DNA from: Fonticula-like sp. SCN 57-25
Lineage: Eukaryota
Assembly: GCA_001724245.1 (NCBI GenBank)
Contig: MEDX01000037.1
Span: 1-36,895 of the forward strand
Direction: 5' to 3'
Length of the DNA stretch: 36,895 nt
The stretch's first letter is position 1. Each line of letters opens with the position of its first letter. This document shows, in pieces, positions 12,292-33,725 of the stretch. Both the position numbers and the translations under genes were made by a program. The notes below the pieces were generated by a model. The model was not told the DNA's origin and ran no database searches. It worked only from the letters and a program-made list of their open reading frames with translations.

Positions 12292-14108
12292 ATGGCAGGA
12301 ACGTACGCGCACTTGGAAGAGTATGATGAGGTGCCGCTCGTAGCTGCGTCCGAGATTGAGCTTGTGCCGCTTGGCTCGGACGGCGCGGATCTCGCTGGCG
12401 AGCAGAGTGACTCGCTGGACAGGGAGGAACAGTCAGAGCCCGACTTTGTCGACGCGCCGGCTCCTCGATGCGGCCCGTTCCCCACGTCGGTGTACTTGAT
12501 TGTAGGAAATGAGTTTTGCGAACGCTTCTGCTTCTACGGCATGAAGTCTGCGCTGTCGCTGTACCTGACGAGCTACCTCTTGATGAATGAGGACTCTGCC
12601 ACGGCCGTCGTGCACACGTTCAACTTTTTCGCCTACCTCTTCCCACTGGCGGGCGGCATCATGTCCGACACGTACTTTGGCAAGTTCAACACGATCCTCT
12701 ATCTCTCTATGGTATACTTTGTTGGCATGCTGCTCTTGTCGGTGACTGCGATCCCGGGCGTGACAGGCGATCCGCCTGGCGCGTGGGGCGTCGCTTTGTC
12801 GCTGTTCCTCATCGCTGTCGGCACGGGAGGAATCAAGGTACGGCGACTTGTTGTATTATATTTTGTTGTTCTAATTGTGTGCAATGCAGCCGTGCGTGTC
12901 TGCGTTTGGCGGCGACCAGTTTTCGTCTCGCCAGACGTCTCAACTTGAGCTCTACTTTTCCGCGTTTTACTTTTCCATCAACATGGGCAGCTTTCTCGCA
13001 ACGATGCTGACGCCGTTCCTCCGCGGCGACGTGTCCTGTTTTGGCTCTGATCAGTGCTACCCGCTTGCCTTTGGCGTACCTGCTCTCCTTATGCTCGCTG
13101 CGATCGCGCTCTTCTTTGGTGGCCGGTCGCTGTACCGCCGCCTGCCCGCCTCTGGCGAGAACATTATTGTGCAGGTGTGGCGGATCATTGCCTCGAGCTA
13201 CCGCCGCCGGCGCGAGCCGCTCCCCGCGGGCGGCCACTGGCTTGACCGCGCGGTGCCGGAGCATGGCGCGCGCGCGGTGAGCGACGTGCGCCGGCTGCTG
13301 CGCGTGCTGACGGTGCTCACTCCCGTGCCGCTCTTCTGGACGCTCTTTGATCAGCAGAGCTCGCGCTGGACGTACCAGGCCGTCGCCATGGACCGGTACG
13401 TCTACACGGGCACCGACGAGAGCGGCGAGCCGACCTTTTTTATTATCAAGCCCGACGTCATCCAGGTCATGAACGCCGTCCTCATCCTCGTCCTCATCCC
13501 GGTCATGTCAAAGGGCGTCTACCCGCTCCTCAGGCGCCTCGGCTTTGCGCTCCGGCCGGTACGCGCGCCCTTTCTTAACGTATGTTTCTCATAAAGGGCA
13601 TTAGCTGCAGAGGATGGGCGCGGGACTCGCGCTTGCGGCGCTGACGTTCCTCGTCGCCGCCATCATCCAGCTCAGCATCGACAAGTCGGTCATGGGCCCC
13701 GACCCGAACGACCCAGTATGCGCGGGCGACGATTCGTGCTGCGTCGAAAACTGCGTCAGCGTGTTTTGGCAGATCCCGCAGTACGTCATCATCACGGCGG
13801 GCGAGGTACTCTTCTCCGTCACGGGCCTCGAGTTTGGTACGGATCGGCGCGGTCATTCATTTGTGCTGACGCTTCCGCTGGTATTAATAGCGTATTCGCA
13901 GGCGCCGCAGTCCATGAAGGGCGTCTGCAGCGCTGCGTGGCTGTTCACTGTTGCCATTGGAAATTTGCTTGTCATCCTCGTGTCGGCCTTAAAGCTGTTT
14001 GGCGACCAGGCGACAGAGTTCTTTGTCTACGCGGGCCTCATGGTCCTCGTCGTTGGCATTTTTGCACTCCTGGCGTCCAAATATGTCTACGTATCGACGG
14101 GAAAGTAG
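12292..14108 (+). CDS. Proton-dependent oligopeptide transporter (POT/PTR2/SLC15 family), ~554 aa
   Basis: Exons 12292-12837, 12890-13558, 13605-13836, 13891-14108. Motifs EFCERFCFYG, GTGGIK|PCVSAFGGDQF, FYFSINMGS, LFWTLFDQQSSRWT, EF|AYSQAPQSMK. Confidence 0.95.
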
Positions 14109-20755: not shown

Positions 20756-22930
<2,175 letters not shown>

Positions 22931-26963: not shown

Positions 26964-29190
26964 TCATAGCACAAGAACTCCGCTGACAGGGCTTATTCCG
27001 GATGACCTCGCGTTGCGCATCTGCAGCTGAACGAGCTCGTACCGCTCGCGAATCTTGCTGGCGTACGTCGCGACAATATTCCTGTGCTCGGACGACAGCT
27101 TGAGGTCCTCCGTTTGCATGAGCGCGTCCAAAAGCAGCAGTGCCTGGCGGTACTTTTGCACGCCAGGCTCGTCCTCGTCAAAGGCGCCCTCGTGCGAAAG
27201 CGACTTTGCACTGTGGAAGACGAGCTGAAGAATACGGAGCGACCGCTGGGGGCTCGTGACGGACGTGTACGACCGGCGGAGATCTGTCTGCAGACTTTCG
27301 GCGCGCTCGAGGCAGCTCTGATAAGCCTCATCCATGCTGGCAACAATGTTCTGCAGCGTGCCCGTGGAGCTCCGGAAGCGCGAGTAGAAATGGCGCGCAC
27401 GGCGGAAAGCAATGGAAAAGAGCGAGAGGGTGTAGCAATAAAGCGTGTAGGTGTCCTGCTTGTCCTCGGTTGATTCCGCCAGGCGAAGGACAGCCATGGC
27501 GGTCTGGCGCGCATGTTCAACCGACTCGAAGCTTTCGCGCTCGGCAATGGACGAATTCATCAGCGAGGAGCTGCTGAACGTCGCATTCGGCGGCGACGAG
27601 GACGGCTTGGTAGAGGCGGAACTGACCACCTGTTGTGTGTCCTGGGGCGCCAGCGTGAACCCGAGGCTGTTCGACGCGAGCTTCACAGCCCCAAGCAAGA
27701 TGTCCTTCGGGCTCGTCGTCCAATGAGACTGAGGCGACGAGCCCGGCGCGGGATGCGTAGTCGCGGGCTGAGGCGGCGAGTCGGGCGGCGTCAAGACTGC
27801 TGCCTTGGAGGGCTTTCGGATGACCGACCCCGAAAGAGAAAAGGACAGCGAAGACGATGAGGAAGAGCTGAGAATGTCGCCGCTCGTTTGCTTGGCTACG
27901 CTCGTCGCGCCAACCAAGGGCGACTGCCCAGCGATCGGCGCCTGGCCGTTGGCAATGATGTCCACCGTTTGAAAGTTTGCGATCTGTGCCTTGTCAATCA
28001 TGACAAAATCATCCGATCCTCGCATCTGGGGGCTCGCGCTACCCAGCGCCGGGTTCGTCGTCAGCGGGTTGGACGGGAGGGGCGACGCGTGCGTCATGTC
28101 GGCGGCAAAGTCCGTAGCAGACAAGACTTGCTGGAGATAAAACGACGTGCGGGTGGGCGGCAACGCGGCAACGCGAGGCGAAGCGTCAGGCGCGTCCAAT
28201 GATGAGGAAGCCGGAGAGAACGAAAACGCGCGCTGAGAGGACGAACCCTGGCTGCGCTCGCATGCCTCCACCGCTTCCCTGCCGTTTTGCACAAACGGAT
28301 GCCAGAAGAATTGCGAAAACGTCATACGATGGATGGGGTCGCGACGAAGCAATTTCCGCACAAGATCAAGGCAGTCCTCCGAGACGGTCGTCGATGGCGG
28401 AAAGTCAATTGTCTTAAACTGCTTGATCTTTTCAAAGAGCTGGACTTGGTTTTGCGCGTTAAAGGGAACCTTGCCGCACACCATCTCATAGAGGATGCAG
28501 CCAACAGACCACAGGTCAGCCTTGTAGTCGTAGGGGCGGTTCAAGAACACCTCTGGGGCCATGTATAGAGGCGTTCCGCACGAGGTAGAGGCCAGGTCCG
28601 TCTCGCCAAGCACTCGTGCGTAGCCAAAGTCGGCAAGCTTGAGCGTCGTCTGTTCGGCCGTGCTGGCGAGCAGAATGTTGCTCGGCTTCAAATCGCGATG
28701 AATCATGTTGTTTTGGAACAGAAAATCCAGCGCATTCGCTTCAATGGGAAGAGAGTGTGAGCAAAAAAAAACACAAAGGAAAGAGCGCACCGAGCTGGAA
28801 TAAATAAAACTGCACGAGGCTCTCCGACATGCCCTTCTTCATGCGCTTCCCAAGCTCGCCACCTTCGCAAAGCTCCATGACCATGCAAATATCACGGTCC
28901 GTCTCCTGCGATCGCAAAAGTTAACAGCCGACCAACATAAAATTCGGAGAGCGTACAAAGGTTCCATAAAGCTCGACAATGTTCGGGTGCTTGTTTTGCT
29001 CCAGAATGCGAATCTCATTGCGCAGGTTTGCGACGAGCTTTTCTGTGTCCAGTTTGGACTTTGGTACATTCTTGATGGCAACGATGTTGCCCGTGCTCTT
29101 GTGCCTCGCACGGTTCACAACTCCATAAGTGCCTTGGCCAACCACATTGTTGGGAAGACTCTCAAAATCGCTCGCAGAAAATGTTGTCAT
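26964..29190 (-). CDS. ATG1: ATG1/ULK-family Ser/Thr kinase, ~707 aa
   Basis: Exons 28957-29190, 28791-28905, 26964-28738. Motifs GQGTYG, VAIK, HRDLKPSN, LKLADFGYAR, CGTPLYMAPE, YDYKADLWSVG; disordered Ser-rich middle with DDFVMI (AIM-like); helical MIT-like C-terminus. Confidence 0.88.
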
Positions 29191-30058
29191 GGTGAATTCT
29201 GCAGGTTGAATAAAACTGGGAAATGAAACTTTCTTGGTGGTCAGTCTCGGTGCATTCCGAGGACCAGCGCCTGTGCAACAATGTTAGCAATCTAGGAAGG
29301 GTACCATTAAAAACGTACCAGGAAGCCGCGCCGACGGGATGGCGTTAGGCGAGGCCAGCACGATAGCTCTGAAGAGTACTGCGGCGGTCGACGGCGAAAA
29401 AAACCAGCAGTAGAAGGCCCTTGTTGGCGCCTCTCGAGATGCCGGTCAACGCAATAAAAAAAATAGCACGACCTACGAGGTACGCTAGCTTCTCGGTCTC
29501 AGAGGCCGCGCAGGTTAACGTAAACAAACTCGTGTACCGGAACGATAAACGAGGGCCCGAGCCACCAACACGACCAGGAGAAGGGGGCGGCGGGGAGGGG
29601 CAACAAACCACGAAATTTGACTGCGTCAACCGACGTAGTCAAAGACGAAATCACAATAATCCGCGACGGGAACGAGCAACGAGCAACGTTCAGCACTGGT
29701 CAGCCTCTAGCCCACTGTTGCCTGTGCGGTAAACGATGGCTTGCTTTTCCTTGGAAGGGGGGGGCGCCGAACGGTCCAGACAACACTGCTGGGCAGACGT
29801 AGGGCGGGAACTCGGTCGTTGTTGGTAAACGGTCAATTCAATAGAGTCACCTGAAAGTTGCCTACCCGGTGATTTTGTTGAAGGAAACACCTGACTTTCG
29901 AACCACACGGGTAGCCGATCTCAGTACACCCTCCATTTTATTGATGACGTCAATGTGCGCAATGTTCGTGATTGTGGGGCCAAATCCACGGTGGAATCCA
30001 CCCTGGATTTGACTATCGCCCACAGTGATGTGACAGTACTGCCCTTCTCGATCACCGG

Positions 30059-30066
30059 TATAAAAG
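30059..30066 (+). promoter_or_regulatory. TATA box (TATAAAAG) upstream of the RNase MRP RNA
   Basis: Canonical TATAAAAG beginning 36 nt before the first base of the MRP P1 helix. Confidence 0.6.
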
Positions 30067-30094
30067 CACCATGTGGCTCCCTTTTCTTTTCTTT

Positions 30095-30445
30095 GAGGAA
30101 CACGTCGAAGGCCCGCCGATCGGAGGCGCACGCACGGGGAGGTGTTGGTAACAATGTCCTCCTAGTCTATACCTTATTTGGAACCTCTGGGGAAGGTCCC
30201 CGGACGCAGGACAGAAAGTGTCAGCCGTAAAGGCCATCCCCTCCCGCTTACCTCCGCCTTGCGAAGAAGGAAGCACGCGAAGGGTATGCCGCCTCTCTTT
30301 CTTTCCTTTGATTGCCCCTGACCCTTTTTTTTGCTAGTGTGTTACTGAGCTGCGGCTTGCGGGGGGTAGTTTGTCCTAGCACAGTTATGCGGGCCTGCTT
30401 CTTTTGAAGCAGAACAGAACGGGGCCCACTCTCGACGTGTTTCTC
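30095..30445 (+). ncRNA. RMRP: RNase MRP RNA (351 nt genomic; ~297 nt if intron 30284-30337 is removed)
   Basis: P1 GAGGAACACGTCGA (30095-30108)/TCGACGTGTTTCTC (30432-30445). P2 AGGCCCGC/GCGGGCCT. CR-I GAAGGTCCCCGG pairs with CR-V ACAGAACGGGGCCCACTC (P4). MRP-diagnostic P8 GACA-GAAAG-TGTC (GARAR loop). P9 GCC-GTAAA-GGC. CR-IV AGTTA. P19 GCTTC-TTTT-GAAGC. Confidence 0.92.
30284..30337 (+). other. Putative 54-nt spliceosomal intron inside RNase MRP RNA
   Basis: GTATGC donor, pyrimidine tract, CCCTGAC branch site, T8, TAG acceptor, and a typical intron length for this window. Removal creates the hairpin AGCACGC-GAAG-GTGTGTT. Confidence 0.75.
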
Positions 30446-30628
30446 CCCATACCCACTCCCACAAAGAAATATGTCGTGTCAGTTTCCTCACCCTTATGTT
30501 CTCTGCACTCACTCGCGTAGGACCGACGTGCTCTTCTGGACTGGATTTCTGCCCACCCTCGCTCAAGGTATGTACTAGGAACTGGCTATTTGGGTTGGGA
30601 GTGGGTTCTATACCTCGTTATTGAAGAC

Positions 30629-30700
30629 GTGCAATGATGGTTGAATTTCTTCACCTGATCCTCATGAAGATCAAAACTCGAGCTTTTTAAATCTGAGCAC
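30629..30700 (+). ncRNA. SNORD36: Box C/D snoRNA, snR47/SNORD36 (U36) family, double guide, intronic
   Basis: Terminal stem GTGC/GCAC; box C ATGATGG (30634), D' CTGA (30655), C' ATGAAGA (30664), D CTGA (30693). D' guide TTGAATTTCTTCAC is complementary to LSU rRNA GTGAAGAAATTCAA. D guide CGAGCTTTTTAA is complementary to SSU rRNA TTAAAAAGCTCG. It lies within intron-like 30568 (GTATGT) to 30776 (GCTAAC...TAG). Confidence 0.92.
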
Positions 30701-31276
30701 ATTCTTCTTTTTTGCTTGCTATTTTTGCTTTTATATTCTTGCCGCTTCTGTTTGCTAACTCCTCAATTTGGACTAGTCTGTGTACTGCTCGACTTTTTGC
30801 ATGCATACTCAAGCTTGCGACCACTAATGTATTACAATATTACTACCGAGTTCCTTTCCCGCGCCCACCAAACCCCTAGTGCGATAAGAGCATGTCCAAA
30901 GAGAAAGCGATACTTCTAGTCTGCATGCACTATGCTCTACATGGTTGACACTCCTTTGCAAATTGCGCTAAAAGGCGCCCATCCTTCACACGATTTAGCT
31001 ACTGAATACTGCAGTCCAGCAGCACCATAGAGGGTGTCCTTTGATTCTTGCGAGTATGACCCATTTGAGCGATAAATCGGTGGCCCAACGACCATGCTGG
31101 TCAACGACGGTCGATCATGTCCAAAGCGTTGATTGGCCAAAAATGTGATTGCAAAATGCAAACTGTGTTACGTGGCCACAGATCCCGTTTTTCTTTTCCA
31201 CGCTCGTGCGCTTTTTCCATACTCCGTCGAGTCGTCTTGGTCGCCCACAGCTTGCCACTGCCAGGTTGCCAGTAGC

Positions 31277-33725
31277 ATGACGTTTGCCCTTGCTGGTGTT
31301 GTGCGCGTACGCCATTCTTTCTACGATAATGCATTTATTGTTGCTCACTTTTGCTCCTAATAGCGCCCTTTGGCGGCCATGACTGCCACCCGCGCCCTCG
31401 CAACTGCGGCAACTGCCCGCGTTCCGATGAGTCAGTTTGAGCAGGACCAGTTCATCAACTACAAGGCCATCGAGGACCGCCTTTTGGTTGTGCGCCGTCG
31501 CCTCAACCGCCCCCTTACGCTTTCGGAGAAGATTGTGTATGGTCACTTGGACGACCCCGAGCACCAGGACATCAAGCGCGGTGTCTCGTACCTCCGTCTG
31601 CGTCCTGACCGTGTCGCGTGCCAGGACGCCACCGCTCAGATGGCTCTTTTGCAGTTCATGTCGTCGGGCATGTCCAAGGTTGCTGTTCCCACCACTGTTC
31701 ACTGCGACCACCTCATCGAGGCCCAGAAGGAGGGCATTGCTGACCTGGCGCGCGCCAAGTCGCAGAACGCTGAGGTCTACGACTTCCTCAGCTCCGTTTG
31801 CGGAAAGTACGGCATCGGCTTCTGGAAGCCCGGTTCCGGCATTATTCACCAGATTCTCCTGGAGAACTATGCTCTCCCCGGTCTCCTCATGATCGGTACC
31901 GACAGCCACACCCCCAACGCCGGTGGTCTCGGCACCATTGCCGTTGGTGTCGGTGGTGCCGACGCCGTCGACGTCATGGCCAACATTCCGTGGGAGCTCA
32001 AGTGCCCCAAGGTTATCGGTGTCAAGCTTACCGGTCAGCTGACTGGCTGGGCTACGCCGAAGGATATCATCCTCAAGCTTGCCGGCATTCTCACGGTCAA
32101 GGGTGGAACCGGCGCCATCGTCGAGTACTTTGGCCCCGGTGTTGACACCATCTCTTGCACTGGCATGGCTACCATCTGCAACATGGGCGCTGAAATTGGT
32201 GCCACCACCTCGGTGTTCCCCTTCAACGGCCGCATGAAGTCCTACCTTGAGGCTACCAACCGCAGCGCGGCTGCTTCCCTCGCCGAGTCGTTCTCTGAGA
32301 ATCTGCGCGCGGATCAGAGCGCCCAGTATGATCAGCTCATCGAGATCAACCTCTCTGATCTCGAGCCGCATGTCAACGGCCCCTTCACGCCCGACCTTGC
32401 TACCCCGCTTTCGCAGTTTGCCGCCGCCGTCAAGTCCAACAACTGGCCGTCGGATCTCCGCGTCGGCCTCATTGGCAGCTGCACCAACAGCAGCTACGAG
32501 GACATGGCGCGCTCGGCGTCCGTGGCCCGCCAGGCTCTTGACCACGGCGTCAAGGCCAAGTCGGCCCTCACTGTGACTCCCGGCTCGGAGCAGATTCGTG
32601 CCACCATTGAGCGCGATGGCATCATGGGCACGCTCCAGGAGGCTGGCGCGACCGTCCTTGCCAACGCCTGCGGCCCTTGCATTGGCCAGTGGGATCGCCA
32701 GGACATCAAGAAGGGTGACAAGAACTCGATTATCACGTCGTACAACCGCAACTTTACTGGCCGTAATGATGCCAACCCTGCCACCCATGCCTTCGTTGCT
32801 TCCCCCGAGCTCGTCACTGCCATGGCCTTTGCCGGCGACCTCACCTTCAACCCGCTGACTGACTCTATTCGTGGAGCTGACGGCAAGGAGTTCAAGTTCA
32901 CTTCGCCCAGCGGCCATGAGCTTCCCCCGCGCGGCTATGACCCGGGAGAGGACACCTACCAGGCCCCGACCTCGGATCCCAAGTCTATCGAGGTCAAGAT
33001 TGACCCCAAGAGCACCCGCCTTCAGAAGCTTGAGCCGTTCGCTGCCTGGGACGGCAAGGACTACGACAAGCTCCCGATTCTCATCAAGGTCAAGGGCAAG
33101 TGCACGACCGATCACATCTCCATGGCTGGTCCCTGGCTCAAGTACCGTGGTCACCTCGACAATATTTCCAACAACATGCTGATTGGTGCGCTCAACTCTG
33201 AGAACGACAAGGTCAACTCTGTCTACGACCGCCTCCGCAAGACCTATGACAGCGTGCCCGCTGTCGGCCGCAACTACAAGGCGAACGGCATCAAGTGGGT
33301 CGTCGTCGGCGAGGACAACTACGGAGAGGGCTCTAGCCGCGAGCATGCCGCTCTCGAGGTTCGCCACCTCGGCGGTGTTGCCGTCATCGTGAACTCGTTC
33401 GCTCGTATCCACGGTACGCTTGAACTACCTTTACTCTTTGTATTGTTTTGCTGACAAATGCTGTTTTGCAGAGACCAACCTTAAGAAGCAGGGCGTTCTT
33501 CCGCTTACTTTCCAGTCCCCCAAGGACTACGCTCGCATCCAGCCGAGCGACTCCATCTCCATCGTTGGCCTCGCCGACCTCACCCCCGGCAAGCCTGTCC
33601 GCGCCATCCTGACTCACGCCGACAACTCGACCGAGGAGCTCCTCCTTAATCACACTCTCAACGAGGGCCAGATTGGCTGGTTCCGCGCTGGCAGCGCCCT
33701 CAACGAGATGGCGGTCAAGGCGTAA
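31277..33725 (+). CDS. ACO1: Mitochondrial aconitate hydratase, ~777 aa
   Basis: Exons 31277-31306, 31364-33413, 33472-33725. Motifs [72 protein letters not shown]; presequence-like N-terminus. Confidence 0.97.

Follow-up and report, generated by a model that had tools for sequence, protein, structure and literature searches.

A 54-nt spliceosomal-type intron very probably splits an RNase MRP RNA gene at the tip of its P12-like hairpin

The RNase MRP RNA gene found in a contig of Fonticula-like sp. SCN 57-25 very probably carries, at the tip of P12, a spliceosomal-type intron of 54 nt that is spliced out of the RNA, and the gene is most likely transcribed by RNA polymerase II (Pol II). RNase MRP is the enzyme that cuts ribosomal RNA precursors, and its RNA is a universal and essential ribozyme RNA of eukaryotes, the genes of which are, to our knowledge, treated as contiguous. 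Throughout this work, the window means the whole stretch of DNA that was analyzed, 36,895 nucleotides in length, and all positions are those of the window.

In the explanation that we favor, the gene would be transcribed, most likely by Pol II, as a 344-nt precursor in which a U2-type GT..AG intron of 54 nt (30284-30337) lies one base 3' of the terminal loop of a P12-like hairpin. The spliceosome would then excise the intron and ligate 30283 to 30338, and this ligation would complete a 7-bp P12 tip with a 4-nt loop, yielding a mature and presumably functional RNA some 290 nt long.

The RNase MRP RNA gene and its insert

The Rfam model of RNase_MRP (RF00030) matches the + strand of the window over its full length at 30098-30441, with 121.4 bits against a gathering score of 50, an E value of 9.7e-34, and all model positions (1-266/266) covered. 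Judged by this family match, the locus 30098-30441 is an RNase MRP RNA gene. The alignment to RF00030 contains P1, P2, P3, CR-I, P8, P9, P10/P12, CR-IV, P19, and CR-V, with a longer loop in the P3 arm and a weakly paired P9. Both CR-I (30189-30205) and CR-V (GGGGCC, 30421-26) are aligned with high posterior probability. The P8 hairpin (30210-30222) consists of a 4-bp stem and the loop GAAAG (30214-18), which fits GARAR, a pentaloop on P8 that has been described as the signature telling MRP from P RNA (PMC4287351). In P4, the alignment can be read as containing a compensatory GG/CC change, with A to G in CR-I and UU to CC in CR-V; the P4 pseudoknot is absent from the Rfam structure line, so this pairing is unscored by the model. 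An earlier reading of the DNA, made from its letters without database searches (hereafter the sequence-only reading), had placed the gene at 30095-30445 and listed the MRP hallmarks that it carries. Both the coordinates and the list hold when set against the RF00030 alignment, the P4 GG/CC pair being a reading of that alignment.

Between AAGAA and CUGAGC, at the tip of the P12-like arm, the model assigns about 69 nt (about 30268-30336) to insert states. The parts of the gene around this insertion are as follows.

30098-30283, + strand: exon 1, with P1, P2, P3, CR-I, P8 with its GARAR loop, and P9 (Rfam alignment); it ends, at 30272-30283, in the P10/P12 5' strand (AGCACGC, the GAAG loop, and G); supported by RNA contigs at 30104-30282/3
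30284-30337, + strand: spliceosomal-type intron of 54 nt, GT..AG (sequence, and absence from RNA contigs)
30338-30441, + strand: exon 2, with the P12-tip 3' strand (30338-43), CUGAGC, and the P12/P10 3' strands, and then CR-IV (about 30381-90), P19 (about 30394-30413), CR-V, and the P1 3' strand (Rfam alignment); supported by RNA contigs at 30337/8-30423
30272-30343, + strand: P12-tip hairpin across the exon junction (ViennaRNA fold of the joined exons)

The sequence-only reading had described the insert as a 54-nt piece with GTATGC, CCCTGAC, a T8 tract, and TAG, and this description proved exact. The 5' site GTATGC occupies 30284-89, the branch motif CCCTGAC lies at 30316-22 with its A, position 30321, lying 16 nt from the intron's 3' end, and the T8 tract (30325-32) is followed by the acceptor TAG at 30335-37. 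The insert is 78% pyrimidine and has a G+C content of 46%, compared with 58% in the exons. When folded alone, it has a minimum free energy (MFE) of 0.0 kcal/mol, versus -3.4 +/- 1.9 kcal/mol for 300 shuffles, so that no fold is predicted for it and the possibility that these letters form a stem, which the earlier reading had raised against itself, finds no support.

The rarity of such an arrangement was estimated with a strict intron-like pattern, defined as GTRHGY, a length of 45-75 nt, and CTRAY placed 10-25 nt from a YAG end. The window contains 26 start-end pairs of this pattern, compared with 8.7 +/- 3.6 in 100 Markov-1 simulations, and the sole match in 30000-30500 is 30284-30337. The chance rate under the Markov-1 model is 1.2e-4 per base and strand, which corresponds to about 0.04 expected matches per 344-nt gene before any demand that the match be positioned inside the insertion of the model. 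Chance does not account for the intron-like element at 30284-30337.

A handful of mRNA introns from the same DNA, identified by reading frame, are available for comparison. According to Pfam, the MRP gene is flanked by a protein kinase gene on the - strand and an aconitase gene on the + strand, and the kinase gene contains two short introns.

28906-28956, - strand: kinase-gene intron of 51 nt, GTACGC..TGTTAAC..CAG (reading frame)
28739-28790, - strand: kinase-gene intron of 52 nt, GTGCGC..T9..GCTCAC..AAG (reading frame)

Both of them split the kinase domain of this upstream gene, which encodes an Atg1-like protein kinase, and in the intron at 28739-28790 the sequence GCTCAC is a non-consensus branch-like motif standing beside the T9 tract. 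With T9, GCTCAC, and TGTTAAC present in the kinase introns, long T-runs and relaxed branch motifs appear to be normal for this genome. A heuristic that joins open reading frames (ORFs) gave 123 intron candidates and is noisy in GC-rich DNA; only those in Pfam-confirmed genes were used, namely 12838-12889 (52 nt), 33414-33471 (58 nt), and 22280-22343 (64 nt). The MRP insert had been said to have the length, branch site, and acceptor of host mRNA introns, and within this handful the likeness is borne out (54 nt versus 51 and 52 nt in the kinase gene). On the side of the aconitase gene, both strands are open for ~700 codons (31115-33412 on the - strand and 31370-33454 on the + strand), with a Pfam match only on the + strand (aconitase, E 1e-148). 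Long ORFs on the antisense strand are thus frequent in this GC-rich DNA, where ORF length alone is a poor guide.

The exact removal of the insert was also expected, from the letters, to create a hairpin of 7 bp with a 4-nt loop, and folding with ViennaRNA of exons joined in silico reproduced it at -8.6 kcal/mol. In this fold, 30272-78 pairs with 30283 and 30338-43, the loop is formed by 30279-82, two of the seven base pairs are G-U pairs, and the exon junction lies one base past the C-G pair that closes the loop. The joined exons make up a 290-nt RNA in which the other parts of the predicted P12 arm are unaltered. In the MFE prediction for the unspliced RNA, the outer stem can still form, with the last G of the intron replacing 30283, and the region of the 5' splice site pairs with the stretch directly past the branch motif. 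Such pairing in the precursor would bring both splice sites together.

RNA contigs lacking the insert

Nine RNA runs from five studies, described as compost, soil, or unlabeled metatranscriptomes, matched the window. The shares of words by which these runs matched are small (0.08-0.17) and are no evidence of habitat. Four of the nine runs, one from each of four studies and called here X1, X2, X3, and X8, were examined against 29500-31500. The evidence that they provide consists of assembled contigs, which show presence and not absence and which give no strand, ends, or lariat.

Each of the four runs contains one contig (217, 235, 235, and 190 nt) that lies over about 30104-30423 and skips exactly 54 nt, with a depth of 2.5-3 for these bridging contigs. 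The contig of X1 is identical to the window in 217 of 217 aligned letters. Its joint was reported at 30282/30337 as 'GT..AG (cut +1)', which equals the removal of 30284-30337 and the ligation of 30283 to 30338. The contig of X3 has the same joint as X1, plus two other letters. In the contigs of X2 and X8, the joint was reported at 30281/30336 (GG..CT), with no shared letters, and agreement with canonical splicing would require that G>A at 30282 be present in those strains. Such a substitution is plausible, if unproven, because C>T at 30185 is also shared and X3 has its two other letters. The change C>T at 30185 is common to the contigs of X2, X3, and X8, which therefore represent a second allele; given G>A at 30282, the loop at the spliced P12 tip of this allele would be GAAA, compared with GAAG in the present strain.

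Letters of the intron occur in none of the seven RNA records aligned from the four runs. Three other records of the seven are lower-identity pieces of MRP RNAs from relatives. In one record from a relative (record 6 of X8, depth 38.9), 57 letters correspond to 112 letters of the window (30248-30359), and the spliced form of the present gene has 58 there. Also present in these metatranscriptomes, at higher abundance (depths of 6.5-74), are MRP RNA contigs from other, more distant fungi (records 6 and 7 of X8 and record 4 of X3). They align on 30184-30405, where only the conserved core (CR-I/P8 and CR-IV) matches and the variable arms are different over their whole length.

On both sides of the gene, at 29500-30103 and 30424-31500, no RNA contig cover was present in X1, X2, X3, and X8. 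With the cover confined to the MRP gene, its source looks like a discrete stable RNA and not like contaminating DNA, and the ends of the contig-covered RNA look roughly as Rfam predicts. Support for the proposed spliceosomal-type intron, which would split the gene at the P12 tip and be removed from its RNA, thus comes from the 54-nt skip in four of four runs and from the GT..AG cut of X1. At the contig level, a junction of the kind that the sequence-only reading had asked for is present, and retention of the 54 nt is seen in no contig.

Three of the four bridging contigs stem from a strain that differs slightly (C>T at 30185), and the joined form is known from RNA contigs. This would fit an origin of the contigs from an intron-less allele or a retro-copied MRP gene, with the copy in the window either keeping its 54 nt or being silent. 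Such an origin is nevertheless improbable, since the contig of X1 agrees with the window in every aligned letter, the piece that is absent has GT..AG precisely at its ends and a branch motif at the right distance, and a contig with the 54 nt was found in none of the four runs. Moreover, were a DNA copy to lack a piece so precisely bounded by GT..AG, its derivation from spliced RNA would be the best explanation.

The chance that the skip is a technical artifact, produced by template switching of reverse transcriptase or by misassembly of contigs, is slight in the extreme, even though the whole of the RNA evidence comes from low-depth assembled contigs. The same 54-nt skip recurs in four libraries from four studies that used differing protocols, among them polyA, rRNA-depleted, and random, its boundaries are GT..AG, and the two sides of the joint share 0-1 letter, leaving no repeat on which an assembler could collapse or an enzyme could switch. 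It is the agreement of four unlike libraries, together with the lack of a repeat at the joint, that makes an artifact unlikely. Splicing of the transcript of the MRP gene is, accordingly, the reading that we keep to below.

Transcription and the neighboring snoRNA

Elements that bear on the transcription of the gene are found on both of its sides, on the same strand.

30059-30066, + strand: TATA-like box TATAAAAG, 32-39 nt upstream of the predicted MRP RNA 5' end (motif scan)
30568-30776, + strand: apparent 209-nt intron, GTATGT ... GCTAAC ... TAG (read from the sequence)
30629-30701, + strand: SNORD36-like C/D box snoRNA (Rfam RF00049, 71.4 bits against a gathering score of 30)

The TATA-like box is a putative promoter element. 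A tract of eight T is expected to stop RNA polymerase III (Pol III); in S. cerevisiae, NME1 is a Pol II transcript. No T-run of five or more letters occurs in either exon of the window gene or within about 240 nt past 30441. From the T8 tract within the gene, the absence of a T-run downstream of it, and the TATA-like box, we infer transcription by Pol II, which the spliced form would likewise imply for the MRP gene in this lineage. Animal MRP RNA genes are described as Pol III units that end in a poly-T stretch (PMC4287351), and a tiling-array paper on C. albicans lists NME1 as an 'RNAP II-associated ncRNA' (PMC2926782).

The snoRNA is located inside the intron at 30568-30776, which belongs to a seemingly non-coding host whose 5' splice site lies 126 nt past the end of the MRP RNA. 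In a sequence scan, neither a TATA box nor a T-run of at least five letters nor a Pol III terminator was found between the MRP gene and the snoRNA intron. It is conceivable, but rather doubtful, that the MRP RNA constitutes the first two exons of a spliced non-coding Pol II precursor that runs on into the intron with the SNORD36-like snoRNA. No RNA contig linking the MRP RNA to the snoRNA intron was found in the four runs, in which contigs show presence and not absence. If the two were co-transcribed, a single transcript would deliver a ribozyme cleaving pre-rRNA from its exons and a guide modifying pre-rRNA from its intron, and the 54-nt intron would help to mark the transcript for processing coupled to the spliceosome.

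Split RNA genes and expanded MRP RNAs

Intron-split genes for structured non-coding RNAs are already known, and the MRP RNA example appears to be new: in a search of the full-text literature, which a mention in supplements or in comparative MRP surveys would escape, we found no report of a spliceosomal intron within an MRP RNA gene. Introns also occur in U1, U2, and U5 in Rhodotorula. Those of U6 adjoin its catalytic center and are thought to arise by reverse splicing; we know of no contact between MRP RNA and the spliceosome. One name encountered in the literature was set aside, as the 'NME1' of PMC10498592 is the human metastasis gene and not the MRP RNA.

The closest parallels are offered by U3 and U6. 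As presented in a survey from 2017 (PMC5832005), spliceosomal introns are known in fungal U3 genes (S. cerevisiae snR17A/B and Neurospora crassa) and in the U6 snRNA genes of Schizosaccharomyces pombe and other fungi, and no small structured RNAs other than U3 and U6 are as yet known to contain introns often. On the same account, U3 resembles the window gene in having a short canonical GT..AG intron with its branch site about 15 nt from the acceptor, in being an independently transcribed structured RNA of pre-rRNA processing with a TATA-type promoter, and in carrying its intron within a hairpin, so that removal gives the functional fold, as is predicted for the MRP RNA (PMC5832005). In contrast, U3 is a box C/D snoRNA, whereas MRP RNA is a ribozyme of the RNase P/MRP family. 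The U3 intron is, in the genes described, located in a functionally critical 5' hairpin, whereas that of MRP lies at the tip of a variable peripheral hairpin. U6, as far as these descriptions go, is like the MRP RNA in that an mRNA-type intron lies within the gene of a small catalytic-core RNA and is removed by the spliceosome, as it presumably is from the MRP precursor. The two differ in that U6 is a Pol III transcript, whereas the T8 tract of the MRP gene argues for Pol II.

If the present interpretation is correct, MRP RNA would be the third class of small structured RNA to pass through the spliceosome, after U3 and U6, and one more step of ribosome biogenesis would lie downstream of splicing. 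In fungi, ribosome biogenesis is already described as depending on splicing through the introns of U3 and through intronic snoRNAs (PMC5832005, PMC5033589). The coupling of pre-rRNA processing to spliceosome activity that the sequence-only reading had drawn from the split gene would thus be plausible. Splicing may, however, be dispensable for the activity of the RNA, because the P12 tip takes large insertions in other MRP RNAs, and the intron, which sits at an exposed and variable site, seems to be an insertion that is tolerated or slightly beneficial, not a regulatory device. The gene would provide a natural case for how introns enter structured RNAs, in this instance at the exposed tip of a hairpin, where the junction is AG|GT-like.

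A different relation to introns has been described for the RNase P/MRP RNA genes that are located inside introns of host genes in Drosophila, other insects, and Caenorhabditis, and for which splicing is reported not to be required (PMC4287351, PMC9849065, PMC1796607). As these genes are presented, they resemble the window gene in tying the family to Pol II transcription and to introns. Their topology is the opposite, with the whole RNA contained in an intron of the host, whereas in the window gene it is the RNA itself that is divided between two exons.

The remaining comparison is with MRP RNAs that are enlarged in the same region. The 54 nt could be a lineage-specific expansion of P12 that is retained in the mature RNA, its intron-like signals being coincidental. 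P12 and domain 2 are hypervariable; domain 2 of the MRP RNA of Pezizomycotina is described as having 'extra helices' (PMC3879985), and Candida MRP RNAs are reported to reach 0.9-2.2 kb (PMC5033589).

For further examples, metagenomes were scanned with the CR-I motif, which gave at least 120 stretches. Among the matches listed, a GARAR-like motif just downstream of CR-I was present in 9 of 120, most matches being due to chance, and a blastn match to the MRP gene was present in 16 of 120, the best having 82% identity over 68 nt. Rfam recognized RNase_MRP, again among the matches listed, in 11 of the 15 loci tested (L045 left out), with lengths of 237-460 nt. None of these 11 MRP loci, among the matches listed, is a close relative of the window gene. 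Eight of the 11 are at most 282 nt long and thus have no room for such an insert, and in the alignments of the three longest, the extra letters are helical or lack GT..AG splice signals. In two near-identical genes, L063:578-1034 and L018:540-999 (457 and 460 nt, 62-63 bits), both the P12 tip and P19 are enlarged by long purine/pyrimidine helices.

The expansions of Pezizomycotina, Candida, L063, and L018 are, as far as described, like the window insert in occupying the same variable site, from AAGA to the P12 3' strand, and those of L063 and L018 amount there to ~100 nt. They are, in contrast to it, helical and presumed to be retained, whereas the insert of the window is unstructured, bears splice signals, and is missing from the RNA. 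A retained expansion is accordingly very unlikely: the inserts of L063 and L018 are purine/pyrimidine helices without GT..AG ends, the 54 nt, pyrimidine-rich and without a predicted fold, are absent from four of four bridging contigs, and its set of signals would arise by chance in only about 0.04 of cases per gene, even with the exact position not yet required. An intron that is spliced out thus accounts better for the insert at the P12 tip than a retained helix does.

Covariance models report genes of this kind as one hit whose variable domain shows an 'expansion', and similar introns may therefore hide in published fungal MRP structures. If they do, published mature lengths and P12 models may be wrong.

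Two further features were seen in the enlarged metagenome genes L063 and L018. A stretch of about 7 U occurs within their P19 expansion, and the Rfam alignment leaves only 1 nt for the 43 model positions of P3.
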